Shown here one piece after another: positions 26,952 to 47,088 of a DNA stretch of 64,000 nt; within the stretch, counting starts at the first letter, position 1; each line of letters opens with the position of its first letter. The notes under the pieces were generated by a model. It did no database searches. It worked only from the letters and a program-made list of their open reading frames with translations, and was not told where the DNA came from. Source of the DNA: Thermoanaerobaculia bacterium (GTDB taxonomy: Bacteria; Acidobacteriota; Thermoanaerobaculia; Multivoradales; Multivoraceae); contig OY762911.1 in the NCBI GenBank assembly GCA_963666565.1, positions 2,560,001 through 2,624,000 on the forward strand. Reading direction: 5' to 3'. Both the position numbers and the translations under genes were made by a program.

Positions 26952-28811
26952 TCAATCGACCCGGTCGAAGAAGCCGGCGTTCTCGCCGATGATCGGAACC
27001 ACGAGGGCGCGGTCGAGGTAGTCGTTCCTCATCTCGCAGGAGGTTTCCGCCACGAGCGTGCAGCCATGACACGCGGCCCCGTGCAGCCAGCGCTGTTCCG
27101 TGCTCGACTGCGGCACATGCTGGGCGCACACCGGGTCGTTCGAGCACAAGGCGGCGATGTGGAGCGCCTGGCGCAGGTGATCGCCCATGCGGCGGGCCTG
27201 CTGCACCAGGCCGCCGAGCGTGCCTTCGGCGTCCGCGCTGGCGGTGTAGAGCAGGAGTCCGTAGCGCTTCGCGGCTTCGTCGACGTAGATGCGCTCCCGG
27301 ATCGAAGCTGCCGGGTAGCCGCAGCGCAGGGCGAGCGACTGGATCAGCAGGTGGGACAGGGTATGCAGCAGGACGTAGCGGCCGCCGGGGAAGGGGCGCT
27401 CGCTCTGGCCGCGGCCGCCGGTTCGACGTTCGACCCAACGCTCATGGCCCGCCCGGAGTGCCGCGCAGCGCGTCTGCACGTCCGGCTTCCGGCGCCAATC
27501 GGAGATGGCCGAGCCGTTCAGCAGGACGAACACGCCCTCGCCCCGGTTCTCGACCGCCGGGAACCAGGACGGTTCGAGCGCCAGGTCGGCGCGTTCGACG
27601 TCCGTGTCGTATTCGCCGTCGACGTTCGGGGTCGGCGCCTCGAATCGCGTGAAGCCGGCGAGGGCCGACACTTCGCGCAGTCGATGGACCTGCACGACCG
27701 CCTCGACGCGGTCCAGGAACGCGGCGCCGGTGGCCCGCCACTCGCGGGCCGGCAGGCGGCGGGCGTGGAACCGGGGGTCCACCGGAACGTTGTCGTCGTA
27801 GCCTTCGGGGGCCGCCAGCAGCGCGTCGAGTTCGGCGTGCTTCATCGGTTGTTCTTCCGGGTCGCCCGCCCGGCGGCGCTCGATGGCGGCGACGACTTCG
27901 GCGTCGTCGAACCCCTGCAGGGCCGCCTTGACCCTGGGGATGCCCTTGAGCAAGGCCAGATTCTCCTCCGTCTTGACGACCTGGAGCGTGTCCCACAGCT
28001 CGCCGACCGCCTGATCGACGACCGATCTCCGCCGCGGCAGGGAGAGGGCCGTGACGACCTGCGGAAACCAGGCGTTCGTCGCGGTGCGGATCAGCAGGCG
28101 GCTCGGCAGGTTGCAGTCCTCGTTCGCGTTGCGGCCGAGCCAGGGACGGGCGCCGTTGCAGATGCCGAGCGGCCGTTCCTCCAGCGTCTTCGCCTCGTGC
28201 ATGCCGCGGTTGCTGCCGCAACTGCAGCGAACGACGAGATTCGAGAGGTCGCCGCCGGTGCCGGTCTCGTCAAGCCGAAGTTCGCCTCTGCATTGGGACT
28301 TGCCGCCGTGGACGAAGCGATACCAGTCGATGTCGTCCACATGGCCCCGTGGGCAGCCCTGGACGAACCGGGTCGCGACCACGGGCTTGCCGTCGAACCT
28401 CCGGCGGTCGTCCAGGGCGGTGCGATGGACGATCCGGCGGGAGGTGCGGCCCGGGCGATCGCCGGCGTCGGAAGCGGCATCGTTCTGCACCAGGAACCAC
28501 TCCGGGAAGCGCGGCGAGGCGATGCCCGGCGAGTTGGCCCCTGGACGGTCAGACGCCGGGGGCGGAGCGAACAGGCCCGGCGGCGTACCGCCGGTGAGCG
28601 CCCGCAGCCGCTCCGCGAGCCTCGGTTCTTCGATCGCTTCGAGCAGATGCGGCGGCGGCCACCAGTCGAGGCCGCCGACGACCGCCGAGTCCCTGGGCAA
28701 GTCGATCAGGGCGCCCGGCCCGTAGGTCGTGATGACCTGGCTCCGGCGTACGCTGCCCCTGCTGCCGCCCTTGCCAGCCTTGCCGGCCTTGCCGCGCCCG
28801 CGCCGGGCCAT
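26952..28811 (-). CDS. drmB: DISARM DrmB (DUF1998 domain)
   Basis: VRRSQVITTYGPGALIDL, CPRGH, HTLSHLLI, GTLGGL, CSNDPVC..ACHGC..SCE..N..LDR. Directly downstream of drmA. Confidence 0.92.
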   Translation of the reverse strand: MARRGRGKAGKAGKGGSRGSVRRSQVITTYGPGALIDLPRDSAVVGGLDWWPPPHLLEAIEEPRLAERLRALTGGTPPGLFAPPPASDRPGANSPGIASPRFPEWFLVQNDAASDAGDRPGRTSRRIVHRTALDDRRRFDGKPVVATRFVQGCPRGHVDDIDWYRFVHGGKSQCRGELRLDETGTGGDLSNLVVRCSCGSNRGMHEAKTLEERPLGICNGARPWLGRNANEDCNLPSRLLIRTATNAWFPQVVTALSLPRRRSVVDQAVGELWDTLQVVKTEENLALLKGIPRVKAALQGFDDAEVVAAIERRRAGDPEEQPMKHAELDALLAAPEGYDDNVPVDPRFHARRLPAREWRATGAAFLDRVEAVVQVHRLREVSALAGFTRFEAPTPNVDGEYDTDVERADLALEPSWFPAVENRGEGVFVLLNGSAISDWRRKPDVQTRCAALRAGHERWVERRTGGRGQSERPFPGGRYVLLHTLSHLLIQSLALRCGYPAASIRERIYVDEAAKRYGLLLYTASADAEGTLGGLVQQARRMGDHLRQALHIAALCSNDPVCAQHVPQSSTEQRWLHGAACHGCTLVAETSCEMRNDYLDRALVVPIIGENAGFFDRVD

Positions 28812-31800
28812 CAGCGCTCTCCACCGCCGGCAGGATCCCGGACGTACAGGTGGACCTCGGGTTCGACGTCGCGCAAGGACCGGTTGGCCCGGAACCTTCG
28901 GTGGTGGTCCGAATCGAACTCGGTGTCCAGCATCTCCCGCAGCAGAGGCTGGCCGGCCCGCCGTTCGTAGCGCTGGTACTTAACGTCGGTTCCCACCTCG
29001 CGGTAGGCGTCGACGACGTGCTGCCAAGAGTCGAGCAGATCGGCGGTGCGGCTCCTTACGCTCCGCAGCTTCTCCTCCCGCTCCGCTTCCTCCAGCGGCT
29101 GAGCGTGGAGCCGGTCGCGGAACGCTTCTACCAGCCGGCGCTCGATCTCGGCCCGGGCGTCGGCCAGCCTCCCCACGCCCTGGGCGGGCGTCAGGGACGG
29201 TTCGGCGTGGCGGGCAAGCGCCACCAGCGCACCAGCCATCCCGCGGTCGAGCGCGCGGGCCGCGAAGGGCGTCACGCTTCCGGCCTCGACGGCGCGGTAG
29301 AAGGTCTCGTGGTAGTGGCGAAAGCGCTCGTAGTAGGAGCGGTCCCGCGGCTTGTGGACGTTCAGGAGGGTGAGCACCAGCCCCGGTCTGGCGTCGTCCC
29401 GGCCGACCCGGCTCGTCGCCTGGATGTACTCGGCGTTCGTCTTGGGCTGGCCCAGGACGACCATGAGTCCGAGGCGCTGGATGTCGAGACCGACCGAGAT
29501 CATGTTCGTGGCCAAGGCGCAGTCGACGCGGCCGCTCCGGTGGAACGGCAGGCCGAGCCTCTGGCGGGCCTGGGCGACGTCGGCGGTCGAGACCCGCGAG
29601 GTCAGCTCCAGCGGTTCCACGTAGGTCGAACGGTCCCGGAAGTACCTTCGTTCCTGGCCGATTCGCCTGCGCGCGCCATACCGCCGGAGGGTGTTCTGCA
29701 CCTCTTCTTCCACGATCCGGCGTGCGCCGCCCAGTTCGCGCAGACTGTTGAAGTAGGCCAGCACCGTCATGTACGGGTCGGCGGGGTTGGCGGCGTTGTC
29801 TCTGCCCCCGGCGTCGCGGTACGCCTTCTGGGCCGCCGCCATCAACGGCAGCAGCACGCGGCGCATCATGACCTTCGCGTTCTTCCCCGGCGACGCGATG
29901 CCCAGGTAGAGCCGCGCGGGCGTCTCGCTCGGCGGCTTGACCTGGGCGAAGAACGAATCCCGGCGGGTGAGTCCGGGCGGCGGGAAGATCTGCGTCACCG
30001 GACGGCCGAAGAGCGCCTGGATCTGGTCCCGCGCGTGGCGCGTCGTGGCCGTGGACGCGACGATCTTCGGCTTCGCCGGGCCACCGCCGCCGGACTGGCG
30101 GAGCGAGAGCGCCTCGATGGCCGTCTCGTACAGGCCGGTCATCGAGCCGAGCGGCCCCGCGATCAGGTGCAGCTCGTCCTGGACGATCAGGTCGGGGCCG
30201 GCAAGCGGCGCCGGCAGCGGCTGGCCGCGACCGGGCTCCGCGGCGCCGTAGAACCCGGCGTCGTCGTAGCGGTCGGCGCCGCCGAGGAGCGCGCCCGACC
30301 GCGCTTCCCACGGCAAGGCGGCGAACTTGTCGACCGTCGAGATCAGGAAGCAGGGCAGGCGGCGGTAGAGCGGTTCGTCGACGGCGACGATCGGCAACGG
30401 ACGGTCGCCGGAGAACTCGCATTCCCAGGCGGCGCACGCCACTCGCAGGTTCCGCGGTTCGTCCTTGTTCGGTTCCAGCGAGAAGGAGTCGGGAGTGAAC
30501 TGCTCGCCGCACCACGGGCAGTTCTCGAGCGGGATCGGCGACGGATTGCGGTCGGGTTCGCGCTGGTAGCGCGTCGTCTTGGAGCGCGCCGACTCGCTGT
30601 CGCCGTCGCCCTTGCGGCCGAGCACGTTCGGCGTGGCCGCCTTGCCGACCCAGAGTCCGATCTCGAACGGCCATTCGCCGTAGCGCTCGGGATCGTCCGC
30701 CCGCTCCAGTTCCAGCGCACAGACCAGGCCGGCGGCTCTCGCCAGCTGGTCGAGGGTCAGCAGGCGCAGGGTGTAGCGCATGACGACCGACACGCCGGCG
30801 CCGGCTCGGCCGGCGGCTTCCGGGTGGCGAAGGCGGCGCAGCACGATGGCGAAGGCGGCCAGGCCGAGGTAGGCCTCCGTCTTGCCGCCGCCGGTGGGGA
30901 AGAAGAGCAGGTCCACGAACTCGCGGTGCGGGTCTTCCGGGTCGGCGAGCGGGGCCAGGTTGAGCAGGATGAAGGCGAGTTGGAAGGCGCGCCACTTCGG
31001 GTCGTTCTCCGTGAACACGTCCGGGTTTCGCCGCCGAAGCGCCTGGGCGATGGCCCGGTTGGCGACGCGAAAGGCGTCGAGGGCCTGTTCGTCCCGCTGC
31101 AGGGCGGCGACGCCCCGTTCCATCCGGTCGGCGGCGAACTCGGCCCGTCGCAGAAGTTCCTCGGCGGTTTCGGTGTGGTCGGCGTCGATGCCCGGAAGAT
31201 CGGCTCGGCGGTCCTCGATCCACTCGCGGTAGGCGGCCGTCAGCGGTTGAAGCGCCGCCTCCGCATCGGCCGCGCCGGGCAGCGCGCCGAGCCGGTCCAT
31301 CGAGAGGTCGACGCCGGAAGGCTCGAACGTCTCCGTCTTCTCGACCTCGGCGCTCGGGATCCAGGCCGTCCGTACCGTGCGGCAACTGCCGTCTTCCTCC
31401 TGGTCCCACTCGGCCGACACGTTGTGGCCGGTGGCGTACCGGGGCGCGTCCGCGTAGTGCAGGGCCGCCACCTGCTCGTCCCAATCGTCGTCCTGGGCCG
31501 AGCGGAGGTCGGGGCGGCGTAGGAAGGGCCGGTCGCCATGCACTTCGATCTCGGCCTGGAAGGCGTACGTCGCTTCCTGGTCGTCGAACGCGTCGGCCGG
31601 CTGCCGGTTGTTCACCAGGAACACGGTGACCGCCAGGGCGCCGGCGGGAATCGCCTTGATCTCCGAAATCAGCCGGCGCTCGATGTGAAGCTGCAGGCCG
31701 CCCGAGGCGGGAACGTCGTGGACCGTGGCGCCTTCGCCGCCGCCCAGATCGACCGGGACGACCTCCTCCCGCGGCGTCCGCAGCCAGAAGCGGCGGCTTC

Positions 31801-32215
31801 CGCCGGAATCGTCCTTCTCTTCCGACCGCTCGTAGTCGCCCCAGCGGACGGTGACCCGCAGAGCCGTGTCCCCTGCGAGGAAGCTCAGCCCCATCGACGA
31901 CGGGAAGAAGGCCTTCTTCGCCGCCTTGCGGTCCTCGCTCGATTCCTCGGCAAGGCCCGACCGTTCGGGAACCTCGTCGAGGTCGTCGTCGTCTTCGTCG
32001 TCGCGGCTCGTGCTGAGCTCCGGCGGCGTACCGGAGGGAATCAGGAACCCGGTGAGGTACCAGTTCGACGGCGTTTCGTTCGCGGGCAGCCGCTCGCGGG
32101 CGAGTTCGTGACCCGCGCCGGGGCCGACGAGGTCGACCTTGAGGGCGTCGACGATGTCCTGGCGGACCTCGACGGAAGTTGTCGCCGCCGAAAGGACGGC
32201 GTCGGCTTCGGACAC
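28811..32215 (-). CDS. drmA: DISARM helicase DrmA
   Basis: DLVGP..YLTGFL N-terminus, WRAFQLAF, FPTGGGKTEAY, QDELH, STAT, TNMISVGLD, YIQATSRVGR. Confidence 0.92.
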   Translation of the reverse strand: MSEADAVLSAATTSVEVRQDIVDALKVDLVGPGAGHELARERLPANETPSNWYLTGFLIPSGTPPELSTSRDDEDDDDLDEVPERSGLAEESSEDRKAAKKAFFPSSMGLSFLAGDTALRVTVRWGDYERSEEKDDSGGSRRFWLRTPREEVVPVDLGGGEGATVHDVPASGGLQLHIERRLISEIKAIPAGALAVTVFLVNNRQPADAFDDQEATYAFQAEIEVHGDRPFLRRPDLRSAQDDDWDEQVAALHYADAPRYATGHNVSAEWDQEEDGSCRTVRTAWIPSAEVEKTETFEPSGVDLSMDRLGALPGAADAEAALQPLTAAYREWIEDRRADLPGIDADHTETAEELLRRAEFAADRMERGVAALQRDEQALDAFRVANRAIAQALRRRNPDVFTENDPKWRAFQLAFILLNLAPLADPEDPHREFVDLLFFPTGGGKTEAYLGLAAFAIVLRRLRHPEAAGRAGAGVSVVMRYTLRLLTLDQLARAAGLVCALELERADDPERYGEWPFEIGLWVGKAATPNVLGRKGDGDSESARSKTTRYQREPDRNPSPIPLENCPWCGEQFTPDSFSLEPNKDEPRNLRVACAAWECEFSGDRPLPIVAVDEPLYRRLPCFLISTVDKFAALPWEARSGALLGGADRYDDAGFYGAAEPGRGQPLPAPLAGPDLIVQDELHLIAGPLGSMTGLYETAIEALSLRQSGGGGPAKPKIVASTATTRHARDQIQALFGRPVTQIFPPPGLTRRDSFFAQVKPPSETPARLYLGIASPGKNAKVMMRRVLLPLMAAAQKAYRDAGGRDNAANPADPYMTVLAYFNSLRELGGARRIVEEEVQNTLRRYGARRRIGQERRYFRDRSTYVEPLELTSRVSTADVAQARQRLGLPFHRSGRVDCALATNMISVGLDIQRLGLMVVLGQPKTNAEYIQATSRVGRDDARPGLVLTLLNVHKPRDRSYYERFRHYHETFYRAVEAGSVTPFAARALDRGMAGALVALARHAEPSLTPAQGVGRLADARAEIERRLVEAFRDRLHAQPLEEAEREEKLRSVRSRTADLLDSWQHVVDAYREVGTDVKYQRYERRAGQPLLREMLDTEFDSDHHRRFRANRSLRDVEPEVHLYVRDPAGGGER

Positions 32216-32219
32216 GCGG

Positions 32220-32810
32220 CTATGACCCTCGCGAATGGTGAAGCAGCGAGGTCACGTCGCGCCACAGTTTGTCGAAGGATGGCGCTGCGCGTGCGGCGTT
32301 CAGGTCGAAGGCTGCGGTGAATCTGGCCTGGTGGCGCGTCGGCCGGTAGGTCTCGCCGGTAAGTGCGTTTCGGCTCAACCAGCCCTTGGCGTCCTTGATC
32401 GACTCCGGATCTCGATGCAATTCGGCCGCACCCATCGCCCGGCCGGCGATCGACTCGACGGCGGAGATGAACCAGGACTCGTACTCCACCTTCGCCAAGA
32501 CGGTACGGATGGAGCGGTCAGCGCGTGCAGCCTTGGCGCGCTCGTTTAGCTCGACGGCGAGTTCGGCGGGACAGCCGTCCTCGGCATCCAGCAGGATCAG
32601 GATTGCCCCGGCAGCGCCTGCCCGGACGGCCGCAAGCTGGACGTACCGCTCCAACTCTCCGGGCTTCACGACACTCTGGCGCTTCACTCGGATGGGCCGT
32701 GGGACGTGAATCGGAGTAGAGGGTGCCACCGCTTGTGCGATCCGCCGTAGCAGGATCGGCAGGGCCGCGACTTCACCGTGGCCCTCCACGATGGAGGCGA
32801 TCGTGAGCAT
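32220..32810 (-). CDS. DUF4276-family (TOPRIM-like) protein
   Basis: IVEGHGE...LLDAEDGCP...EYESWF...PE..KGWL...SFDKL pattern. Downstream partner of an AAA ATPase. Confidence 0.75.
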   Translation of the reverse strand: MLTIASIVEGHGEVAALPILLRRIAQAVAPSTPIHVPRPIRVKRQSVVKPGELERYVQLAAVRAGAAGAILILLDAEDGCPAELAVELNERAKAARADRSIRTVLAKVEYESWFISAVESIAGRAMGAAELHRDPESIKDAKGWLSRNALTGETYRPTRHQARFTAAFDLNAARAAPSFDKLWRDVTSLLHHSRGS

Positions 32811-32811
32811 C

Positions 32812-34017
32812 TCAGGGCTCAGAGCCGAACAACCGGATTTGGCTCGGCCTGGGGCTCGACCGGACCGGATCCGGATCGAGTTGGTCTATCCGTAACAGCT
32901 CGCCAGCGGTGAACATGTGCTCTTTGAGAGCGGAACGCCCGGCCTCATCCAGGGGGCCGATGCGGCTTTCCCCGTGGTCGGCGCGGACGGCCAGAATCGA
33001 GTCGGCCGAGATCTCCTCGTCGTCCAGAAGGTCGGCGCTGTGGCTGGTCACCAGAATCTGAATGCGCTCCGCGGCGTCGCGCAGGCTGTCGATGAGGATC
33101 CCGGCCGCTGCCGGATGGAGCGCCACTTCCGGTTCCTCGATTCCCACCAGACCCGGCATCGCGTTCCCGTTGCCGGCGCCTTGGAAGACCGCCACGAGGA
33201 TGCCTAGGGCGCGAAGGGTGCCGTCCGACATGTTGTTCGCCTCAAACTTCCAAGGGTGTTTGGCGCCGCGCACGTCTTGGCGGAACTCGAGGGTCTCTCT
33301 CGGACCCGCCATTTTGCGGGCGACGCTGGCGATCCCCGGTACGACGCTGCTCAGGTAGTCCTGGATTCGCCGTTGTGCGTCGGGCGAACGCGTCGAGACG
33401 TTGGCCAGCACGCTCGCGATGTTCCTGCCGTCCCGACTTAGAAGTTGGCCGGGGTCGGGTGGTTGAGGTTGCCGGATCTCCTGGGGGTTCAGGCTGTAGA
33501 AGCCGAGGGTGGACAGCGCGTCGTAGATGGGGCGGAAGGGCTTGTGGCCGGAGACGTTGACCAGGTACAGCCGGTCCGAGGCGGCGACTGGTCCGATCAG
33601 CAGGCTGCTCCTCCTGACCTCGCCCTTCTCCACACGGTAGTGGTCCGGGTCCCCACCATCGCGGGGGACCACCACACAGTCCTCGCGCTGGACCTCGAAG
33701 CCGCCTGGCCTCTTGGCGCCTACCGTGAACGCGTAGTGCCCGTGGGACTCCTCCAGATCGACTTCGACGCGAATGCCGAAGTGCGTCGGGTGACCGCCGG
33801 ACCTTCGGCGCACGTCGTTGACTCCGCCCCGGTCCCGCAGCGCATGGTCGATGGAGTGCCGGAGCGAGTCCCGCACGAAGCAGAGCGCGTCGAGGAAGTT
33901 GCTCTTGCCGGCGCCGTTCGGCCCCACGAGGAAGCAGAGGTTGGCCGGAGAGACGTCGCAAGCGGCGATGCTCTTATAGTTGCGGAGGGCAACGCGAGTC
34001 AACAGGCGGTCCCTCAT
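32812..34017 (-). CDS. ABC/AAA_21-type ATPase
   Basis: NYKSI, GPNGAGKSN (Walker A), MSDGTLR (signature), IEEPE..LHP (Walker B/D-loop), TSHS (H-switch). Confidence 0.9.
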   Translation of the reverse strand: MRDRLLTRVALRNYKSIAACDVSPANLCFLVGPNGAGKSNFLDALCFVRDSLRHSIDHALRDRGGVNDVRRRSGGHPTHFGIRVEVDLEESHGHYAFTVGAKRPGGFEVQREDCVVVPRDGGDPDHYRVEKGEVRRSSLLIGPVAASDRLYLVNVSGHKPFRPIYDALSTLGFYSLNPQEIRQPQPPDPGQLLSRDGRNIASVLANVSTRSPDAQRRIQDYLSSVVPGIASVARKMAGPRETLEFRQDVRGAKHPWKFEANNMSDGTLRALGILVAVFQGAGNGNAMPGLVGIEEPEVALHPAAAGILIDSLRDAAERIQILVTSHSADLLDDEEISADSILAVRADHGESRIGPLDEAGRSALKEHMFTAGELLRIDQLDPDPVRSSPRPSQIRLFGSEP

Positions 34018-34087: not shown

Positions 34088-34591
34088 CTACGTGGGCCAC
34101 TTCCTGAGCGCCATGTTCAATGCGAGCTGCGCTCGGCGGCTGGCTGCATCCGGCACCTCGAACCCGCAGGACCGGAGGCGCTCCTCGCGGTCCTTGGCCC
34201 GCTGGGCGGCGGCGTCACCCAAGGCGCGGGCCGCCTTGAGCGCTGCAACGACCCGGTCGGGTGCGAGTTGTTCTTGGGAGAGCATCTCGATGAGAGAGAC
34301 TTGTTCGGGCTTCGGCGGGTGACGGACGAAGCGGGCGTTGAGGGGAGCCGTGTCGGATACCGATGCGAGCTGGAGAATGCCGGCGAGGCGATGCAACCGC
34401 GCGACGGCGGCTGCGGAGGGCTCTGCGCCTTGGCGCCAGGAGTCCACCGTTGCCCGCGTCACTCTCAGGATCCGGGCGATTTGGGACTTGTTCAGGGACA
34501 GGGCAGCGGCCAGGTCCCTCACCTGCTCTGTAACCGGAGGCGTCTTAGCGTCTTTGCAGGGCGCGCCGACTGTGACGATTGCCTTGTCCAT
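34088..34591 (-). CDS. HTH-domain (XRE-like/antitoxin-like) protein
   Basis: LSLNKSQIARILRVTRATVDSWRQG is a Cro/XRE-type HTH. C-terminus not recognised. Confidence 0.6.
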   Translation of the reverse strand: MDKAIVTVGAPCKDAKTPPVTEQVRDLAAALSLNKSQIARILRVTRATVDSWRQGAEPSAAAVARLHRLAGILQLASVSDTAPLNARFVRHPPKPEQVSLIEMLSQEQLAPDRVVAALKAARALGDAAAQRAKDREERLRSCGFEVPDAASRRAQLALNMALRKWPT

Positions 34592-34764
34592 GTGGATGTG
34601 GCGGCCGACGATACCGCCTCGTGAAGCTGGCTCGCGCCCTGCTGGTGGTCCTCATCTTCGCGATCCCGGTCTGCTGGGCGGGTGCAGCGGGGCGGTCTGG
34701 CCGCAGGTGGGAGCCTAGCTGCTACCTTCGCTCGGTGTGTAGCTTCCGCTGTTGCGGTCTCGAC

Positions 34765-35421
34765 TTGGCCGCTGATCCCGTCGTGGAAGAGGTTCGACGG
34801 CTTCTTCCAGAGGTGACAGTGAGTGGCGGTTCCTTTGCGCGTTCGCTGCCTCCTCTGGCTCGGACTGGCCGAGAGAATCGAGTCGAGGAACTGCGACGCG
34901 TGAAGAGAGTCGCCACCGCCTGTTGTCTCGTCGACCTCCTAAGGGGTGCCGGACTACCGGCCGTTGAACCCACTCGACGGGTCTCTGGGGAGAGGGTGTG
35001 GCCTTCGGGCTTCATGGGCAGTGTCAGCCACAAAGGCACCAAGGTCGTAGCCGTGCTCGCGCCATCGCGTGCCTTCGATGGCGTAGGAGTGGACATCGAG
35101 GCTGCCGAGCCAGGGGATCTGATGCGCGTTAGATCCCTCCGAACGGCACCCGATCTTCCGCCGGGTCTGCACCCCCGTCTTGCAGTAGCGGTCCTCTTCT
35201 CCGTCAAGGAGGCCGCCTTCAAAGCCCTTTTCCCGTTGGTGAGGGAGAGGATGACGTTCGAGGACGTCGTGGTGCGATGGTCGGCTGGCGGCGTGGACGG
35301 GGTGCTCCATGGAACTTCGGTCTTCCGTCGGGTTTCGATCGAGGTCCGCTGCTCGACGGGAGTTCCAGACTGGGTCGTCTCTTGTGCCCTAGCACAGAGG
35401 GGCATAGTAGGCTGTGTTTGA
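34765..35421 (+). CDS. 4'-phosphopantetheinyl transferase (EntD/Sfp-like)
   Basis: WPSGFMGSVSH, GVGVDIE and LFSVKEAAFKALFP are EntD-type PPTase motifs. Start uncertain (34621, 34765 or 34783). Confidence 0.85.
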   Translation: MAADPVVEEVRRLLPEVTVSGGSFARSLPPLARTGRENRVEELRRVKRVATACCLVDLLRGAGLPAVEPTRRVSGERVWPSGFMGSVSHKGTKVVAVLAPSRAFDGVGVDIEAAEPGDLMRVRSLRTAPDLPPGLHPRLAVAVLFSVKEAAFKALFPLVRERMTFEDVVVRWSAGGVDGVLHGTSVFRRVSIEVRCSTGVPDWVVSCALAQRGIVGCV

Positions 35422-35445
35422 AATTCGGACGCCATCGTGTAGACT
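35418..35445 (+). promoter_or_regulatory. Candidate sigma70 promoter upstream of the ACP-like gene
   Basis: TTGAAA (35418-35423), 16-nt spacer, TAGACT (35440-35445). Confidence 0.45.
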
Positions 35446-35481
35446 GTGCCGAAGTCGAACGGACGATGTGGAGCGAGAGCT

Positions 35482-35787
35482 ATGGCCCAGGACCATCGCA
35501 AGGCTGAGCTAGAGCGGCGAGTACGGGAGGCGTTGGCGGAGAAACTCCGGGACTGGGACGAGCTTGTTCGGGATGGCGTTACGGGTGAGGTGGACCATGA
35601 ACACGCCGACGCTTGGGGGTCGATGCCCGTGATCGACTCAAAGGTCGTGGTCGAGCTCGTCCCGGTCTTCGAGGACGTTCTCGGTTGCGACTTCGACCTC
35701 AAGCTCATACGTGCCGGCGGTTACAACAGCGAAGATGAACTGGTCGCGGAACTGATCCCTGCGGTTCTTGAGGCAGCCGCACGGTGA
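35482..35787 (+). CDS. Stand-alone acyl/peptidyl carrier-like protein
   Basis: Small acidic protein. IDSKVVVELVPVFEDVLGCDF aligns with ACP 'xDSLDxVELVMxxEExFG'. Adjacent to the PPTase. Confidence 0.7.
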   Translation: MAQDHRKAELERRVREALAEKLRDWDELVRDGVTGEVDHEHADAWGSMPVIDSKVVVELVPVFEDVLGCDFDLKLIRAGGYNSEDELVAELIPAVLEAAAR

Positions 35788-35814: not shown

Positions 35815-36162
35815 ATGACTGAAGAACGGTCGAGTAGCGACAGTCTCGGGATCAGGCTCCGGGACGCGCGCAAGTACTGTGGCTTCTCCCAGGAAGAGGT
35901 GGCGCGGCACTTGAACGTATCCCGATCGGCCGTGTCTCTGATGGAGAGCGGCTCTCGGAGCGTCAACGCCATGGAGCTAGGGCGACTGGCGCGGCTCTAT
36001 CAGCGGAGCATGGAGAGCCTTACCGGCACCGTGTCAAGCGAGTCGGAAGCGGAGTCGGTCGGTTTCTTGGCCCGGGCAACGGCAGATCTCTCCAAACGGG
36101 ACCGGCAGGAAGTGCTTCGATTCGCAGAGTTCCTCCGATCGAGGAGGAGTGCCAGTGACTAG
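35815..36162 (+). CDS. XRE-family HTH transcriptional regulator
   Basis: RLRDARKYCGFSQEEVARHLNVSRSAVSLMESGSR. Strong AAGGAG RBS. Confidence 0.92.
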   Translation: MTEERSSSDSLGIRLRDARKYCGFSQEEVARHLNVSRSAVSLMESGSRSVNAMELGRLARLYQRSMESLTGTVSSESEAESVGFLARATADLSKRDRQEVLRFAEFLRSRRSASD

Positions 36163-37144
36163 GCGAGAAGGGATTCTACAGGCGGTGGCGGAAGCCTCAA
36201 AGCTGCTCGGCGAGGTCCCAGTCGGTGCCCGAACGAGCTTCGACATCGTGCGCGCTGTCGTGTCACGCCGCATCCCTCTCTTCTTTCGGCCGCTCGATGG
36301 GTTGCTCGGTGCCAACATTCGCTCAGACGATGGCGCCGCCGGCATCCTCGTGACAACTCGGCGCAACCTCGCCATACAGCGGTTCACGCTCGCTCACGAA
36401 CTCGGTCACATCCTCCTCGACCATCAGCCCCATCTCGACACGATGACGACGGTGGATGTTCAGGGTCCCTATTCCACCCCCGATGCCGACCTGCACGAGG
36501 TCGCGGCGAACACGTTCGCCTCCGAACTTCTGGGGGCTAGAGACCTCGTCCTTCGGTCGGCCCGTCGCCACGGTTGGACGAGGAAGGCGCTTCGACAAAG
36601 ACGCAACGTGTATCAACTCGCGCTTCGTCTTGGGCTCAGCTACAAGGCCACATGCTGGGCTCTGCGCACGGCTTCTGTACTCACGCACGAAGAGGCGCGT
36701 TGTCTCCAGAAGTTGCCGGTCAAGCAGATCAAGCAGTCGTTCGATCCTCTCCGCCTGCAGACCAACGCGCGAACGGATGTGTGGCTACTCACCTCGGCGG
36801 ATCGAGACACGTGTCTAGAAGCTGGACCGGAAGACCTGTTCGCGGTTGAACTGTCCGACCACGTGGCGGCCGGCTATCTGTGGAGGCTCAAGGGAACGGG
36901 CGGCGCGGCGAAGGTGGTTGGGGAGGCCCCTCCGAGTCTGAGCCTCGACTATGGCGGCAGGAGCACGAGAACGGTGTATCTCCGATTCGACGCCCCGGGC
37001 ATGCACGAACTGTCGTTTGAACTCGCACGGCCTTGGACCGGCGCTACCTTGGATCAGCTAACCGTCAACATACATGCTCTCGGCTCGGAGCAGGAAGGCC
37101 TGCCACGGCGCCAGAAGCGAGAGGCGCTGGCAAGTGCGGCATGA
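36149..37144 (+). CDS. ImmA/IrrE-family metallopeptidase with C-terminal chagasin-like (I42) domain
   Basis: QRFTLAHELGH...EVAANTFASELL. C-terminal VELSDHVAAGYLW...GG...F..ARPW. Confidence 0.85.
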   Translation: MPVTRREGILQAVAEASKLLGEVPVGARTSFDIVRAVVSRRIPLFFRPLDGLLGANIRSDDGAAGILVTTRRNLAIQRFTLAHELGHILLDHQPHLDTMTTVDVQGPYSTPDADLHEVAANTFASELLGARDLVLRSARRHGWTRKALRQRRNVYQLALRLGLSYKATCWALRTASVLTHEEARCLQKLPVKQIKQSFDPLRLQTNARTDVWLLTSADRDTCLEAGPEDLFAVELSDHVAAGYLWRLKGTGGAAKVVGEAPPSLSLDYGGRSTRTVYLRFDAPGMHELSFELARPWTGATLDQLTVNIHALGSEQEGLPRRQKREALASAA

Positions 37145-37770
37145 ACGTGGCTATCGAGCTGGACCTGCGGCCCGCGTTAGGTCCTGTGCGGGACCAACGC
37201 GAACTCCCGACGTGCTTGGCTTTTGCAGTGACGGCTGCACACGAACACGCCCTGAGATCAGGTGTGGAGCTCTCGCCCCGGCAGCTCCATCTTCAAGCCG
37301 CTGGAACGCAGATAGGGAAGGGTGTGTCGATTGAGTCCATTCGCGACGCTCTACTGGAACCGGGGCAGGCGCTCGAGGCCGACTGTCCCTACGATCTGGT
37401 GGAATCGGAGCCAGACTGGCTGCCTGTTCCTGGCTTGCCACTCTTTCGACGAGACAGCGAGATGTTGAGCCCGACACCGCCCGACGTGATGTCGGCGCTT
37501 GAATCAGAACATGTCCCGGTCCTGGGCATCAGCCTGCCTGCTGCGTTCCTGAGCCCTTCTGCACCGTGGCTAGTAGAGCCGGGAGACGTAGTGGGTGGGC
37601 TACATGCGGTTGCGGGTGTAGGGCTCGGCCTTCACAGCAGCGGGCGTTGCGTCCTGATCAGGAACAGTTGGGGCGCAGGCTGGGGTGACGCCGGCCATGT
37701 TTGGCTGTCCGAGCGCTTCGTCGCTCGGCATCTTCATGAGCTGATGGTGCTGTCGGACGCGCCAGGATGA
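37141..37770 (+). CDS. Papain-like (C1) cysteine peptidase, cytoplasmic, no propeptide
   Basis: DLR..LGPVRDQRELPTCLAFA (Q19, C25), GLHAVAGVG, IRNSWGAGWGDAG. ATGA coupling to the upstream gene. Confidence 0.88.
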   Translation: MNVAIELDLRPALGPVRDQRELPTCLAFAVTAAHEHALRSGVELSPRQLHLQAAGTQIGKGVSIESIRDALLEPGQALEADCPYDLVESEPDWLPVPGLPLFRRDSEMLSPTPPDVMSALESEHVPVLGISLPAAFLSPSAPWLVEPGDVVGGLHAVAGVGLGLHSSGRCVLIRNSWGAGWGDAGHVWLSERFVARHLHELMVLSDAPG

Positions 37771-38546
37771 CGGTGGAAGTGATCCATGCGGCTGGCCGGG
37801 TGGAGGCGTGGGTGAAGGCGGCGCGGCGACTACTCGAGAGCCAACGACTGCTGAATCTCGTACTCGACATCGCTTCCACTTACGTTCCCGGTACGGAAGC
37901 GCTGGAGCGCCGTATCGACAGCTACATGGCGTCACAAGGGAAGGAGTCCTTGCACAGCGTGGCGGAGACGATCTTCCCTTGCTCGCTGTATTGGCGGGAG
38001 GGTAGTCGGGGAGTGTTGGAACTGTACCCGAAGAACATCTACCCGGTTCTAAGGAGGAGAGAGCCCCGTCGGTGGGGTAACTATGCAGGACGTCTGCTTC
38101 GGCGGGAGACCAGCGCGGGCGACACGATCAACCCTCTGGATCAGATGCTCCGGAAGATGCGTTCGGAAGTCACCGGTTCGCGCACGAAGCGCGCGTGCTA
38201 CGAAATGGGCATCTGTCCTGCGGAGTACGAGCTGCCGCTCTACAGCGCCGCGAGAGACCGACGGCAGAGAATGGGTTTTCCGTGTTTGTCTCATCTGTCG
38301 TTCAAGGTATGGGGCAACGCCGTTCACCTGACGGCCCTCTACCGCAGTCACGACTATGGCGTGAAGGTGCCGGGCAACCTCCTCGGCCTCTCGCGGTTAC
38401 TGTTGTTTGTGGCGAACGAGACGGGGCAGCGGCCTGGTGGATTGGTCGTTCACTCGTCCTACGCCTACATTGACGGGCCGAAGACACCTCTGCGGGGTGC
38501 CTTGGATGAAATCGAGCGTTTACAGGGAGGAGAGTCGCCGTCATGA
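37767..38546 (+). CDS. Thymidylate synthase-like protein (divergent)
   Basis: GNYAGRL, FPCLSHLSF (catalytic Cys), YRSHDYGVKVPGN (equivalent to ThyA RSxD...N). Confidence 0.75.
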   Translation: MTVEVIHAAGRVEAWVKAARRLLESQRLLNLVLDIASTYVPGTEALERRIDSYMASQGKESLHSVAETIFPCSLYWREGSRGVLELYPKNIYPVLRRREPRRWGNYAGRLLRRETSAGDTINPLDQMLRKMRSEVTGSRTKRACYEMGICPAEYELPLYSAARDRRQRMGFPCLSHLSFKVWGNAVHLTALYRSHDYGVKVPGNLLGLSRLLLFVANETGQRPGGLVVHSSYAYIDGPKTPLRGALDEIERLQGGESPS

Positions 38547-39643
38547 GTGATTGGTTTCTGGAGTTCGAAGAGGCGGCCGCTCGGACGGACCAGTTCAGTC
38601 AGCGGCCGAATCACGCTGCGCTTCTGGCGGCGGGGCTGCTCGGCGAGGTCGGGAGCGTGCTGGCCGAAATCAAGAAGGAAGTTCGGGAGGCCGCTGCCTA
38701 TCCGGGGCATCGAAGGCGATTGGTCGAGGAGTTGGGCGACGTCCTGTGGTACTTCACTCGGCTTGCGCGCGTGTCGGAGCCGGATCTGCTTGGGAGGATC
38801 GCTTCTCGTCTGGAGGAGGGCGGGGATGGCGACCGGGACGCGGTGACCGCTGCTCTGGCACTGGGCCGCGATGTAGGAGGGCTCTGGGCGAGGGTAGAGC
38901 ACGGCAGACGGGAAGGGATTCGCAGGGGTCTCCTTGATGTGGCTGTGCGCATAGGTAGCGTGGCCAGGCTCGCCGATGTAGGGTGGCCAGAGGCCGCCCG
39001 GTGGAATAGGGCGAAGATCGAGAGCAGGTGGCCCAGCTCACGTAAGCACGCGCCGCTGTTCGATAGTGACTTTCCCGTGTACGAGCAGTTGCCGCGGCAG
39101 CTTGAGGTGGAGTTCATTCCGATTGAGCGGGGGAAGACCGAGAGCGTACTGCTGCGGTGTCGGGGCCTCAATATGGGTGATCGGCTGACGGACAACGCGA
39201 AGGACCCGGACTCATACCGGTATCACGATGTGATTCACCTATCGTATGCGGCATTCTTGGGCTGGTCGCCTGTGATCCGGAGTCTGCTGAAGTGCAAACG
39301 GAAGAGCAATCCGGACGTCGACGAAGTGGAGGACGGTGCTAGAGCGGCGGTGGCCGAGGAGGCGGTGTCTTTCGCGGTGTTTCGGCGGGCGAAGGAGATG
39401 AGTCTCTTCAAGGGCGTCGAACGTGTGGACTTCGACCTCCTGAAGGCAGTTCGACAGCTCGTCGTGGGTTTGGAGGTGGCGGCGCTTCCGTACTGGCAGT
39501 GGGAGGAGGCGATCCTGGAGGGGTATCGTGTGTTCCGGCGGCTGACGCGGAACCGGGGCGGGGCCGTGGAGATCGACCTGAATGAGCGAAGAGTGGTGTA
39601 CCGGCGGACGGCCTCTTCGAGTGGCGGCGCTACAGGCAGTTGA
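38543..39643 (+). CDS. MazG-like NTP pyrophosphohydrolase with MazG_C domain
   Basis: GLLGEVGSVLAEIKK..EELGDVLWY (MazG). C-terminal DSYRYHDVIH and DEVEDGARA motifs. Confidence 0.85.
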   Translation: MSDWFLEFEEAAARTDQFSQRPNHAALLAAGLLGEVGSVLAEIKKEVREAAAYPGHRRRLVEELGDVLWYFTRLARVSEPDLLGRIASRLEEGGDGDRDAVTAALALGRDVGGLWARVEHGRREGIRRGLLDVAVRIGSVARLADVGWPEAARWNRAKIESRWPSSRKHAPLFDSDFPVYEQLPRQLEVEFIPIERGKTESVLLRCRGLNMGDRLTDNAKDPDSYRYHDVIHLSYAAFLGWSPVIRSLLKCKRKSNPDVDEVEDGARAAVAEEAVSFAVFRRAKEMSLFKGVERVDFDLLKAVRQLVVGLEVAALPYWQWEEAILEGYRVFRRLTRNRGGAVEIDLNERRVVYRRTASSSGGATGS

Positions 39644-39682: not shown

Positions 39683-42600
39683 CTAAAGAAGTCGGCGCTC
39701 CTCGTCGGCGGCTCGCCGTGCGTTGAGTTCGAGCAGGCGGACGAGGACCTCGTCGCGGACTTCGTCGGGCCAGCGGTAGCGGTAGGGCTTCTTCCTGGCG
39801 CCCCAGGTCTCTTCGTCGATCTCGTAGTCGAGGAGGAACTCGCAGTCGGTGGGGATGTCGGTCCAGCCGTAGGCGTCGAGGACGGCGCGGTCCATGTTGG
39901 TGTGTAGGTCGCGGAGTTCACGGATGGCGGGGCTGGTCTCGGAGGGGTCGTGGAAGCGGTTGTAGGTCGCGGTTAGGCCCTCGTCGTTCTCGACCATTTT
40001 GGTGGCGCGCCGGTCGTAGTAGGCCCTGCCGGCGGCCTCAAGGTCGGGGCTGGTTTCCCAGTTCTCGGGGAAGGGGAAGGTCTCGAAGCAGTCTGAGGGG
40101 GTGTAGCGGAGGTCGTCTTTCATGGAGGAGCCCAAGAACCGGACCCAGAGTTCGTGGGGACGGGACTGGAGGGCGGTGAAGGCGGCGTAAGTGGGGAGAG
40201 GGAAGACGATGAAGCTCTCAGCGTAGACCATGCCGTTGGGAAGGTACGCGAAGGTGGCGTACTGGCCGACGCGCGAGACGGCGAGGATACGGTCGAGGTC
40301 GGCGATGGCGGCGTAGAGTCCGGGGCGCTTCTCGGCGTAGTGCCACCACCGCTCGCGAAGCGCCTTGCGGTTCTGGGAGTCGCGGTCCGGCTTCACCCGC
40401 TCCTCCACGACCGCCAACAACTCGGGCCAATCCGCCGCCACGGGATCTGGGTAGTCGTCGGGCACTACGCCGGATTGCCGCCATTCGCGCCGTTCCGTTT
40501 CGTCTGCTTGGTGCCACGACCGATCGAGTCGACTGCGCCGTAGCGGATAGTCCTTGAAGTTGATGATGAAGCGGTGATGAGTGTGAGCGGGGCTGGCATT
40601 GAGCTCGGCGCCGCCGATGTACGGGAAGATCGCCTCCCGGTTCTTGGGGTTGTCGGCGATCAGACGCTTCATCTCGGCAAGCGGCGTCGCCACGCCCTTC
40701 TTGTCCGTGTCGTCAAACGTGAAGCCCATTCCGAGCACGATGCTTCCTTGGAAGCTCTTGCCTGCGTTCTCGGTCAGACGCGCCGGGTCCTCGTGGCCGC
40801 CGCGGTGGAACAGGAAGGCGGTGATGGTCGGCGCTGGCTTGGCGTCCAGCAGTCTCGGGCCAGACCAGGCGCCGCGGTGGACGTGGACGACGCTGACAAT
40901 GACCGCCGCCAGTCCGGGCCACTGGACCCGCCGTCGCGCTCGGTAGATCTCGCCGCCGCTCTGGCAGATGTGGCGCAGGCCGGTGGCGCGCGTGTCGCCC
41001 TGGGCGATCGTGTTCGTGGCGATCAGGCCGAGGGCGCCACGGGCGCGCAGCAGGTCGAACGAGCGCCGGAAGAAGTGGGCGACCAGGTCGGCGTTGCCGT
41101 GGCTCCGCTCGTGGAGCTGCTGCAGCCAGTCCTTGTAGCCGGGGACGTTCGCCGCGGCGATCGTGTTCTTGCCGGCAAACGGCGGGTTGCCGACGATCCC
41201 GTCGAAGCCTGGGTTCTCGCGTTCTCCGGGCAGCAGCACTTCCGGGAACTCGATCTCCCAGTGGAACGGGGCCAGCGGTGGGCTCGCCTTGCGGAGTTCT
41301 TCGAGCCAACCGACGTAGGCGTGGGTGCCCGGAAGGCCGGTCTCGTCTTCTGTAGGCGACTGCAGGGCTTGGGCAAACTCTCGCCGCAGCGCTTCCCGCT
41401 CCTTCGGCTTCTTCCCTTCAAAGAAAGCGGCCAGCGCCAGGTCGCCGTGTCTCTTCACCCGCGCCACTTCGCTGTCGGCCTCGCGGAGCCGGTCCCGCAA
41501 CTCACGATCCGGCGTCTCGTCGCCGGCGTCCTGGATCTCCCGCCGCAGGCGTAGCGCCTTCTCGACCTGCTCGCGGATCCAGGTCGTTTCGATGCCTGCC
41601 TGGAACCTCTTCTCCCCGCCCTTCCAGTGGAACGCCCGGATCTGCTCCAGGGTCAGGCCGACAAGCGAATCGCCTTCGCGGAGCGCGTGGTCGAGGAAGG
41701 TCAGCGGGTGGTTCCTGGCCAGGGTGACGAGCCAGAGGGACAGCTTCGCCAGATCGACGGCAACGGGATTCCGGTCGACGCCGTAGAGGCAGTTCCGCGC
41801 GACCAAACGGCGGGCATGGACGATCTCGTCCTCGTCGGGCGGGATCGCGGGCACGGCGTCGTGGGCGTACCAGGAGTCCACGAGGACGTCGGCGAGTTGG
41901 CGGCAGGCTTCGACCAGGAAGGCGCCGGAGCCCATGGCGGGGTCGCAGACCTTGAGGTCGAGGATCTCGGCTGGCCGTGGCACCGCGGTTTCCGCCGCCT
42001 CCCGGCGCAGCCGGTCGAGGATCGGTTCCAAGGTGTCGCGGACGATCGGTTCGGTGAGTTCCCGCGGCGTGTAGTGCGATCCTGAGCGCCGGCGCTCTTC
42101 GCTCGGCTGGAGGATGAGATCGCCTGTGCGGACGAGGTCGGGCGTCGCGTCGCGGTCGATGGCCTTGTCCAGAGCGGCATGGAGTTCGTCGAGCGTGGCC
42201 GCGTCGCGGAGCGCCTTTGCCGCGGCGCCGGTCAGGTTGCGGTCGGTCTGCTCCCGGAGCCAGCGGACGCGGCGGCCCGGCGCCTCGGTCAGCAGCGCTT
42301 CCAGGTTCACCGTTGCCGGCGCCCCGTGCTTTTTCGCCGCCTTGATCGCGGCCGAGCGGCCTTCCGCTCGTTCGAGGCGGAAGCCCATCATGGTCTCGTA
42401 TACGGCACCGATGTGCTCTACGTCCAGCGCCCGGTAGGACAGGCGCTCCCCGTCGAGCACTAGGAGCTTGGCGAGCGCCCGGTGGATCGTGCCGTCGGAG
42501 ACGAGGGGCGCGGCGACGCGCTCATGGTTCTGTGCCACCGCGCCCAGCGGCCGGCCCTCTAGGAACGTGTAGCGGTCCGGGTCGAAGAGGACGCCGTGCC

Positions 42601-43708: not shown

Positions 43709-43749
43709 CGGCTACCGCAAAGTACGCAGGGGAATCGAGCCAGGCGAGG

Positions 43750-46700: not shown

Positions 46701-47088
46701 TCTGGTAGGCGTCCAGCTTGATGCCGGCCCGGAACGGCGCCTGGAAGAGGTTCGGATCCGTGGCGGTGACGCAGTTCCATCGGAGCGTGTGCAGGAAGGC
46801 TGCGAAGCGGCGCGGCGTGTCGAAGCCCTTGGCGGCAAGTTCGCCCCAGCCTTCCTGCTTCAGGATGCGCCGGTCGATCTCGTGGTTCCAGAAGACCTCG
46901 ATCTCCTCGCCCTGGGCGTCGTCTTCGGCGCAGGCGAGACGGACGACGGAGGAGTGGCCGGGCTTCTCGCCCGGTTGAACGTCCTCCACGAGCCAGCGAC
47001 GTGAGCGGACGTGGACGAGTTGGCCGACTTCCGGGTCGCGTTCGGGGAGCTCGCGTTCAGGAAACGGGGAAGCGGCTGGGGGCGTCAT
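43750..47088 (-). CDS. drmD: DISARM SNF2-like helicase DrmD
   Basis: PEVGQLVHVRSRRW, FQAPFRAGI, ADDTGLGKT, DEAHH, SATPHNG, EGLNFQ, QRNGRIDR. Confidence 0.92.
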   Translation of the reverse strand: MTPPAASPFPERELPERDPEVGQLVHVRSRRWLVEDVQPGEKPGHSSVVRLACAEDDAQGEEIEVFWNHEIDRRILKQEGWGELAAKGFDTPRRFAAFLHTLRWNCVTATDPNLFQAPFRAGIKLDAYQMEPLRKALRMPRVNLFIADDTGLGKTIEAGLIARELLLRKKVKTIVVSAPSSVLEQWQAEMEERFGLLFEILDRAWFTRMRRERGFGVNPWRTHSRFLVSHSLLRDATYADPMREWLGPVLSGSLLILDEAHHAAPASGGRYGIESKFTRAVRDLSGRFEHRLFLSATPHNGHSNSFSTLLELLDPNRFTRGVKVRKRSLEAVMVRRLKEDIRDVQGGFPRRRVVPVKIDDLPEDAPELLLSRLLDEYREAREERFQAAPQSARAASGLLVVGLQQRLLSSIEAFARSLRTHRGTLERRRRKAADAAGRSGGSDRTERFVSGSWLAGEEGDEDRAAFTGEEADREEEAQIRDLNASAESAHGAERAEGSPLQRENDLLDRMQRIAEQARGRPDAKTRELVDWIREHLCPGLPPLGQALPAGSPPPRWNDRRLLVFTENREGTKRYLRAMLDDAIASTDRAEERIVTIDGLTRGPRRREIQRRFNTDPKDEPLRILLATDAAREGLNFQAHCTDLFHFDLPWNPGRIEQRNGRIDRKLQQAPEVRCHYFVLPQRAEDRVLQVLVRKTETIKTELGSLSQVIDDAVERRLTKSGIRHRDAGRLAREIERADIDAERRRLVNEELEAARQRRDDLKGQIARCRDLLQRSRQWVQFEENAFRDALSCSLEIAGAAPLRQTRSEDNGKVWTFPALDGQTHADPSWAGTLDSLRRPRRRNQKLTEWRKEEPPRPVVFQDPGILTDDTVHLHLEQRVAQRLLARFRSQGFVHHDLSRACLAQSADSIPRVVLLGRLTLYGRRAERLHEEIVTAAARWVEPGRRDAPLAAYARDAEIRALDLLEQSLARSGGRPVNDVVVRRLLGSAPRDVDELRPQLETRARAMEKSATERLRERGERESRELRETLEHQRGHVGGELERRQSALKQRTLAFSQAEERQLLADMNSWRRRLDQFDRDLDREPRRVRDFYEVRAVPPVEPLGIVYLWPETN

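Follow-up and report, generated by a model that had tools for sequence, protein, structure and literature searches.

A phosphopantetheinyl transferase and a divergent acyl-carrier-like protein at the head of a conserved, probably antiviral cassette with a thymidylate-synthase-fold enzyme

Introduction

Carrier proteins armed by a 4'-phosphopantetheinyl transferase (PPTase) are known as shuttles in fatty-acid, polyketide, peptide and a few other biosyntheses; we know of no carrier protein that works in a setting where the building blocks of DNA are modified. Such a pair of genes was analysed here in the genome of a Thermoanaerobaculia bacterium of the Acidobacteriota (GenBank assembly GCA_963666565.1). 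The window, meaning the whole stretch of DNA that was analysed, comprises 64,000 nucleotides (nt) of contig OY762911.1 (positions 2,560,001 to 2,624,000 of the forward strand), and its positions 34,765 to 35,787 encode a PPTase followed by a small acidic protein. An earlier, sequence-only reading described the two as a dedicated PPTase and an orphan protein resembling an acyl carrier protein (ACP). Judged from the related loci compared below, the pair heads a conserved, horizontally mobile operon that spans bacteria, archaea and plasmids. The role that we favour on balance is that of a holo-carrier whose thiol arm would serve pyrimidine chemistry in an inducible, defence-like cassette.

Two groups of described systems are closest to the rest of the cassette. 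The protease CapP of the CapH/CapP switches is activated by DNA damage. On the side of nucleotide chemistry, the main text of DefensePredictor (PMC13092281) describes a validated anti-phage system with thymidylate synthase (TS) and 5-hydroxymethyl-2'-deoxyuridine (5-hmdU) kinase domains. MazG and MazG-C are listed there as predicted, unvalidated defence domains, and the terms 'carrier protein', 'pantethein' and 'papain' have 0 occurrences in that main text (PMC13092281). Full-text literature searches, in which DefensePredictor was covered by its main text, found no paper that joins a PPTase or a carrier protein with the cassette.

The PPTase and the carrier protein

The two genes and the predicted attachment site are as follows.

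34765..35421, + strand: Sfp/EntD-type PPTase, 218 amino acids (aa); TTG start inside the open reading frame (ORF) 34579-35421; assigned by Pfam, NCBIfam and motifs
35482..35787, + strand: carrier protein of an unnamed family with a predicted ACP-like fold, 101 aa, isoelectric point 4.5; ATG start; assigned by family conservation and structural model
35638..35640, + strand: Ser53 codon TCA, predicted phosphopantetheine attachment site; the column is invariant, and profile matches (weak) align it with the DS of ACPs

The first protein matched both profiles of the Sfp/EntD type (PF01648 and PF17837), since Pfam ACPS scored 28.7 bits (cut-off 25) and 4PPT_N scored 27.5 bits (cut-off 27). The best NCBIfam matches, all partial, were PptT, Npt and EntD, and the TTG at 34765 agrees with the N-termini of 29 relatives. 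Enzymes of this type carry the motifs WPxGxxGSxSH, GxDxE and SxKEAxxK, and the protein carries all of them. W79, P80, G82, G85, K90, G108, D110, E112, K148, E149, K153 and A154 are invariant in all 30 aligned relatives, and S86 and H89 are conserved in at least 90% of these 30 sequences. The earlier identification of an EntD-like PPTase in front of an acidic protein was thus well founded. The genome also encodes one further PPTase, again of the Sfp type, so the cassette PPTase is an extra copy.

The carrier gene starts 60 nt after the PPTase stop codon. Its product is the acidic protein of about 101 aa (24 D/E against 12 K/R) with a DS motif that had been described from the sequence, and Ser53 lies exactly where it had been placed. 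A word-index sequence search with this protein returned 4 proteins only. A profile built from 4 close relatives and searched against 1.84 billion representative proteins found 138 representatives at E<=1e-3, of which 39 reached E<=1e-10; almost all are 100-135 aa long. Sixty of the 138 were aligned; apart from two close relatives, they share 23-41% identity with the protein of the window. D52 and S53 are the sole invariant columns (60/60), which gives the family a conserved (D)S attachment motif, and P49, K54, G79, G80 and Y81 are conserved in at least 90% of the 60 sequences. The resulting signature, MPxIDSK...GGY, provides a name and a handle ready for hidden Markov models (HMMs) for proteins that go as 'hypothetical' if they are named in any source; 1 of 10 carrier clusters looked up had a name. 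Related carriers have DSL or DSM at the attachment site. At the DNA level, the pattern for the motif occurred once in the window, against 0.00 occurrences expected in shuffles. One member of the family comes from a metagenome-assembled genome of the Thermoplasmata, and within the phylum of the window the carrier is present in 2 of 401 genomes (one being the window's own), which indicates a mobile element.

Profile comparisons place the family at a distance from known carriers. In hhalign, the carrier reached a probability of 12.6% with the genome's own AcpP (24 aligned columns) and 0.4% with a second ACP; a score of 8.6 bits in a --max hmmsearch against our own ACP profile was not used as support. 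The best match of a profile search of the PDB was 2lki (E 0.1, weak), titled 'putative uncharacterized protein', which we take to be a holo-ACP, and the third was 2n98, named an ACP (E 0.87, weak); the DS was in register in both. A PDB sequence search with the single carrier sequence found nothing meaningful. Two candidate relationships were rejected. A DUF5805 match on the N-terminal helix of the carrier was borderline (28.4 bits, cut-off 28.5), recurred in 3 of 60 members only, and was taken as a chance match on a charged helix. The Acidobacteriota locus L003 matched through a KLRDWDEL stretch alone, inside a 735-aa protein, and was considered spurious.

The AlphaFold2 model of the carrier (pLDDT 84.1, on the scale of the predicted local distance difference test) has helices at 2-31, 53-58, 60-67 and 84-100, with a loop after the first. 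Ser53 caps the start of the second helix, in agreement with the ACP-like helix II proposed earlier. Among the 43 listed Foldseek matches, all with E>0.001, 14 were titled as carrier proteins or complexes containing one. In a VIA-align comparison with 48,161 chains, at least 16 of the best 50 rows were named ACP, peptidyl carrier protein (PCP) or PP-binding, with Z-scores of 4.1-5.8; the top match had Z 5.8 and a root-mean-square deviation of 2.7 Å over 64 residues. Five of the 30 nearest clusters in the ESM Atlas belong to ACP families. These comparisons are consistent, but modest, in suggesting that the carrier is an ACP-like helical bundle of a very divergent family.

Conservation of the cassette

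A degenerate DNA pattern for the carrier motif retrieved 82 metagenome stretches, 59 of which encode true family members; the following counts refer to loci with room on the contig. The PPTase gene precedes the carrier gene, in the same orientation, in 34 of 38 loci (missing in L012 = L067, L048 and L077). The carrier is followed by an XRE-type helix-turn-helix (HTH) gene in 42/42 loci, by an IrrE-type metalloprotease gene, with a chagasin-type domain, in 22/23 (missing in L084), and by a papain C1 gene in 20/20. A TS-like gene is found in 17/18 (missing in L055) and a MazG gene in 9/12 (missing in L044, L087 and L047). The gene order is identical, on one strand, across these loci. The description of the pair as an orphan therefore does not hold. 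Its linkage to the XRE-IrrE-papain-TS-MazG core, a check set beforehand, proved near-universal in the metagenome loci and extended to all nine plasmid loci described below.

Several variants of the cassette were observed. A second, longer and more canonical thymidylate synthase stands in place of MazG in L044 (5170-6207) and L087 (7929-8987), and in L044 a dCTP-deaminase-like gene lies upstream of the PPTase. In L055 (1981-3585), IrrE, chagasin and papain are fused in one 534-aa protein, which leaves a four-gene cassette without TS-like and MazG genes; the next gene there, on the opposite strand, encodes a PNKP-type RNA repair ligase. The cassette of L047 ends in an integrase. A gene of the 5-hmdU-DNA-kinase family (HMUDK_hel) lies upstream, or convergently downstream, in 18 of 62 carrier loci; of the 8 loci that can be viewed in full, 6 have it. 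Genes for a dCTP-deaminase-like protein, for dTMP kinase and for uracil-DNA glycosylase also occur as neighbours in some loci.

Individual loci show further rearrangements. At L012 (11528-12205), one of the lineages without the PPTase, a 225-aa ORF without a Pfam match occupies the PPTase position. In the close relative L001 (4243-5838), a deletion runs from the middle of IrrE into drmMI, so that papain, TS-like and MazG genes are lost and PPTase, carrier and XRE genes are kept. L008 (11968-16210) comes from a different family of the phylum. Of its TS-like gene only the final third (residues 163-249) can be detected, and about 3.7 kb of other sequence lies between this part and MazG; the copy seems to be disrupted.

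Counterparts on plasmids

A tblastn search of plasmids with the TS-like protein gave 18 records; 8 of them, and a haloarchaeal plasmid (Haloarcula) found via the carrier, were analysed as 9 loci. In all nine, the HTH gene is immediately preceded by a gene for a protein of 86-115 aa, which overlaps the HTH start. Seven of these counterparts match the carrier HMM. Two, from Streptomyces, score 32 bits with PF00550, above the cut-off, and their records call them 'acyl carrier protein'; three further ones have sub-threshold PF00550 matches at the DS site. Going by these profile matches, the counterparts grade from the carrier family into true PP-binding proteins.

A PPTase gene stands beside the carrier in three of the nine: it is of the Sfp type in Haloarcula, and of the AcpS type and divergently oriented in Bradyrhizobium and Rhizobium. 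The recruitment of two unrelated PPTase types to the same small protein is hard to explain unless Ser53 is phosphopantetheinylated, and from these adjacent genes we infer that it is. The word 'dedicated' fits the subfamily of the window, where the PPTase is encoded in cis at 34/38 loci; it fits the wider family less well, with 3/9 plasmid loci only, where an AcpS-type enzyme is possible.

Relatives were found on conjugative plasmids and beside Mrr-type nucleases or AbiEii. Shorter proteobacterial carriers do not have the N-terminal helix with its W/D residues. Uracil-DNA glycosylase is present in the proteobacterial plasmid loci L125, L127, L128 and L130-L132, which points to uracil-containing DNA or nucleotides as a theme. 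In the same loci except L127, a MazG-type or same-sized gene is convergent with the TS-like gene.

The downstream proteins

The carrier gene of the window is followed by five genes.

35815..36162, + strand: XRE/CapH-like HTH repressor, 115 aa (HTH_31, PADLOC capH)
36149..37144, + strand: IrrE/ImmA metalloprotease (CapP-like) with a fused cysteine-protease inhibitor domain of the chagasin type (I42), 331 aa (Pfam, PADLOC capP)
37138..37770, + strand: papain-family (C1) cysteine peptidase, 210 aa (Peptidase_C1, invariant residues)
37767..38546, + strand: TS-fold (TS-like) enzyme, 259 aa (TIGR03283 partial match, Foldseek to ThyA)
38543..39643, + strand: MazG NTP pyrophosphohydrolase with MazG_C domain, 366 aa (Pfam)

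The XRE protein matched HTH_31 (E 1.5e-13) and PADLOC capH (E 6.4e-9). The IrrE protein matched Peptidase_M78 (E 1.6e-11), Inhibitor_I42 (E 3.2e-8) and PADLOC capP (E 1.1e-15), and its HEXXH residues H83, E84 and H87 are invariant in 16/16 aligned sequences. The two adjacent genes thus have the composition of a CapH/CapP pair, namely an XRE HTH protein and an M78 metallopeptidase with HEXXH. The papain protein matched Peptidase_C1 (E 1.6e-7), and Q20, C26, H156, N176, S177 and W178 are invariant in 16/16. MazG matched MazG_C (E 4.2e-76) and MazG (E 8e-6).

The TS-like protein scored 22.7 bits with PF00303, below the cut-off of 24.3, and gave a partial match to TIGR03283 (E 1.4e-10). P172, C173, H176, R193 and N204 are invariant in an alignment of 16 sequences; P172-C173, R193 and N204 presumably resemble the nucleophile, the phosphate-binding Arg and the uracil-binding Asn of ThyA. 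Its model (pLDDT 86) matched ThyA in Foldseek (E 1.1e-8, probability 1.00) and also matched flavin-dependent dCMP hydroxylases of the same fold (TM 0.55-0.65). Searching the PDB with a profile of the TS-like alignment yielded nothing at E<=0.01. With their catalytic motifs intact in the alignments of 16 sequences, IrrE, papain and the TS-like enzyme look active.

A complex of four chains was also predicted, comprising IrrE, papain and the TS-like enzyme with the carrier as partner, from our own 16-row alignments. The score was 0.62 (0.62, 0.57 and 0.64 in separate runs). The two controls in which another protein stood in for the partner scored 0.00 each, and the best control, in which IrrE was exchanged, scored 0.31. 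A score mark of 0.32 is reached by 58/80 solved complexes and by 2/110 mismatched pairs. Between runs, at least 75% of contacts are the same, and the pLDDT of the partner is at least 71. In the predicted complex, W25, D26, L28 and V29 of the carrier touch residues 135-145 and 174-177 of IrrE (expected error 1.5-2.3 Å), and the Ser53 face (42-48, 53-54, 57-60 and 73-76) touches the TS-like enzyme at 38-51, 62-76 and 206-223 with an error of 4.5-5.8 Å.

Proposed role of the carrier

In the reading favoured here, the PPTase would transfer 4'-phosphopantetheine from CoA onto Ser53 of the carrier. In its holo form the carrier would then dock on two partners, on the TS-fold enzyme through the Ser53 face and on the IrrE protease through the N-terminal helix. 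The thiol arm might join in reactions at C5/C6 of a uracil nucleotide, serving as a tether, a nucleophile or the donor of a one-carbon unit. The setting would be a pyrimidine-modifying system, gated by the repressor and the protease and probably antiviral. The suggestion that the carrier supplies the TS-like enzyme gains some support from the predicted interface between the two, though without IrrE this contact stays below the mark.

The meaning of the finding lies in the combination: in defence islands, and with no loading enzyme, a repressor/protease switch and enzymes for pyrimidine nucleotides are accompanied by carriers of a new family. Should the TS-fold enzyme or the switch indeed make use of the arm, this would represent new cofactor chemistry in antiviral defence or DNA modification. 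A bolder version, which taken as a whole we consider unlikely, can also be formulated. The arm would enter the TS-fold enzyme in place of the folate cofactor, delivering a one-carbon unit (for example as a hemithioacetal) or trapping the C5-methylene of a uracil nucleotide, and would yield a protein-tethered or thio-modified pyrimidine. MazG, kinase and uracil-DNA glycosylase partners together with papain would make the antiviral product, and the carrier would report to the IrrE switch. Such a cassette would be the first phosphopantetheine-dependent immune or nucleotide-modification system.

A number of results weigh against the proposed role. PF00550 (PP-binding) did not match the carrier of the window (E<=0.1) or any of the 60 family members (0/60, E<=0.01). 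Foldseek of the AlphaFold2 model against the PDB gave no match at E<=0.001, all VIA-align Z-scores are below 8, in the range where helical bundles can match by chance, and hhalign against a 26-domain ACP profile reached 6.4% probability, though with DS aligned on DS. The PPTase is missing in cis in 4/38 loci of the subfamily and in 6/9 plasmid loci, and the metagenome loci without it (L012 = L067, L048, L077) contain no PPTase remnant in any frame. The kinase gene of the 18 relatives is absent from the window and also from the close relatives L001 and L002; PF18723 had no match in the window's genome, but control genomes likewise gave none. PADLOC (E<=0.01) has no model for five of the seven cassette proteins, namely PPTase, carrier, papain, TS-like and MazG. 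The complex prediction used four chains and our own alignments, unlike the calibration of the tool. Exchanging IrrE brings the score to 0.31, short of the mark; taken by itself, the contact with the TS-like enzyme therefore lacks support at that level. Lineage L055 keeps PPTase and carrier without TS-like and MazG, which argues against an obligatory TS-like partner.

These last points lead to the main rival, itself rather unlikely, in which the main function of the holo-carrier would be regulation or sensing, as a subunit of the IrrE/XRE switch. Whether the arm is apo, holo or adducted would govern the protease and, through it, induction, and no substrate would be carried for the TS-like enzyme. 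The most confident predicted contacts are indeed those with IrrE, whose replacement halves the complex score, and the carrier gene appears translationally coupled to the HTH gene in 9/9 plasmid loci. L055 also retains exactly the parts that such a switch would need, with PPTase, carrier, XRE and the IrrE-chagasin-papain fusion. However, Ser53 itself is predicted at the TS-like interface and not at IrrE. The contacting N-terminal helix is missing in the shorter proteobacterial carriers, so the IrrE contact cannot be universal, and no precedent was found for a phosphopantetheine-dependent protease switch. The earlier idea of a modification-dependent regulatory partner gains some support from the confidently predicted IrrE contact.

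DISARM and defence context

The cassette of the window is located between drmA/drmB and drmMI/drmD, beside HEC-01A/B as called by PADLOC. The flanking features are as follows.

26952-32215 and 39683-47088, strand n/a: class-1 DISARM genes (DrmB, DrmA, DrmMI, DrmD; PADLOC), split by about 7.5 kb of embedded genes
32220-34017, - strand: HEC-01B (DUF4276) with HEC-01A (ABC-type ATPase), listed by PADLOC as a candidate system; also lies within the DISARM locus
34088-34591, - strand: 167-aa protein, divergent from the PPTase; weak HTH, Xre-antitoxin-like and Tap-like matches only
35418..35445, + strand: promoter-like site in the gap between PPTase and carrier; weak consensus match only

Class-1 DISARM was called from DrmA (E 1.7e-269), DrmB (E 1.9e-79), DrmMI (E 0) and DrmD (E 0). 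The cassette also lies inside DISARM in L002 and, judged by methyltransferase (MTase) and SNF2 genes, in L010, and it stands beside drmA/drmB only in L008. Among the 59 carrier loci, DISARM genes were found only in L010, many contigs being short, and several loci whose flanks extend over 3-12 kb, L063, L012 and L087 among them, showed none. The G+C content is about 70% in the Acidobacteriota DNA of the flanks and 62-63% in the cassette. According to Payne et al. (10.1101/2024.01.29.577857), genes embedded in DISARM are often defence systems, and HEC-01A/B gave no protection in its authors' assays. From this context the cassette is probably antiviral.

The 167-aa protein has no homologue in the related loci. 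The promoter-like site agrees with the consensus at 9/12 positions, and 2 such sites occur against 0.6 expected in shuffles; it counts as a lead only. No inverted repeat that could serve as an operator was found within 35380-35500.

The embedding in DISARM here, in L002 and in L010, and the position beside drmA/drmB in L008, might also mean that the cassette is a constitutive module that modifies self-DNA or the nucleotide pool and cooperates with DISARM (an epigenetic mark), instead of an inducible effector, with the carrier working as proposed above. The HMUDK_hel and TS-fold families are those that phages use for thymidine hypermodification, which would suit such a module. We nevertheless regard this as improbable, because DISARM genes were seldom found around the carrier loci (many contigs being short), the cassette also occurs alone on plasmids, and the XRE/IrrE pair resembles the damage-triggered CapH/CapP switches.

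Modification of Ser53 and origin of the pair

A still less probable explanation is that the small protein is never phosphopantetheinylated and acts as an acidic adaptor or inhibitor (antitoxin-like), and that the PPTase has another substrate or moonlights. The silence of PF00550, the hhalign probabilities of 6-13%, the modest structural Z-scores and the absence of the PPTase in cis from part of the family would all fit this explanation. It would leave unexplained why Asp-Ser is the only invariant pair among 60 sequences of 23-41% identity, why positional counterparts include true PP-binding proteins, and why two unrelated PPTase types were recruited beside the carrier. Moreover, another Sfp-type PPTase is available in the genome for general use.

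The sequence-only reading had also raised the possibility of a decoy or guard of the host ACP, in which a mimic of AcpP would trigger the system when a phage factor attacks ACP. The ACP-like fold, the acidic surface, the placement in defence islands and the predicted contact with the switch protease would suit a guard. The carrier is, however, a very poor mimic of the genome's AcpP (12.6% probability over 24 aligned columns, 6.4% with the ACP profile and no PF00550 match), and this weak likeness makes a host-ACP decoy highly improbable. The DSK...GGY signature and the long extra N-terminal helix are also conserved across bacteria and archaea whose AcpPs differ.

Genome-wide profile searches gave 19 AMP-binding, 5 ketosynthase, 0 condensation and 1 acyltransferase matches, with 0 matches inside positions 2560001-2624000, and this upheld the earlier statement that no non-ribosomal peptide synthetase (NRPS), polyketide synthase (PKS), adenylation or acyltransferase gene is in the window. 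With no loading-enzyme gene beside the carrier in the whole window, the locus is not a thiotemplate cluster of the NRPS, PKS or fatty acid synthase kind. It is barely credible that the pair is left over from an ordinary pathway for a secondary metabolite or lipid whose genes lie elsewhere in the genome, or that it serves such a pathway in trans. Stand-alone ACP/PPTase pairs are usual in such clusters and the AMP-binding and ketosynthase matches lie elsewhere, but in different phyla and domains, and on plasmids, the pair occurs together with the XRE-IrrE-papain-TS genes, and its presence in 2/401 genomes of the phylum points to a mobile element.

Comparison with known systems

The PPTase and the carrier resemble the in-cluster pairs of an Sfp/EntD-type PPTase and a stand-alone ACP or PCP (EntD/EntB, Sfp/PCP). 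In both, a two-domain PPTase of about 220 aa with the three motifs given above is encoded beside a small acidic protein in which a conserved (D)S opens helix II of a helical fold; for the carrier of the cassette, this fold is that of the AlphaFold2 model. The cassette differs in that there is no adenylation, ketosynthase, condensation or acyltransferase partner, and in that its carrier escapes PF00550 and has the DSK...GGY signature and a 30-residue N-terminal helix. Its neighbours are also different, comprising a repressor, two proteases and nucleotide enzymes.

The XRE and IrrE genes are similar to the CapH/CapP switches of CBASS and other defence operons, which likewise consist of an adjacent XRE HTH protein and a HEXXH M78 metallopeptidase; whereas the protease of the cassette carries a chagasin-type domain and is followed by a papain C1 peptidase (fused in L055), and a carrier gene is coupled to the HTH gene. 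The TS fold, the HMUDK genes in 18 related loci and MazG/MazG_C are shared with phage thymidine-hypermodification enzymes and, as far as the main text describes it, with the TS and 5-hmdU-kinase system of DefensePredictor (PMC13092281). The cassette of the window has the TS fold but the kinase was not found, and it is not assigned to that system. Pairs of chagasin (I42) and papain C1 are also comparable, since an I42 domain and a C1 peptidase with intact Q-C-H-N are encoded in adjacent genes; whereas the inhibitor of the cassette is a domain of a metalloprotease, within a seven-gene operon headed by the carrier pair.

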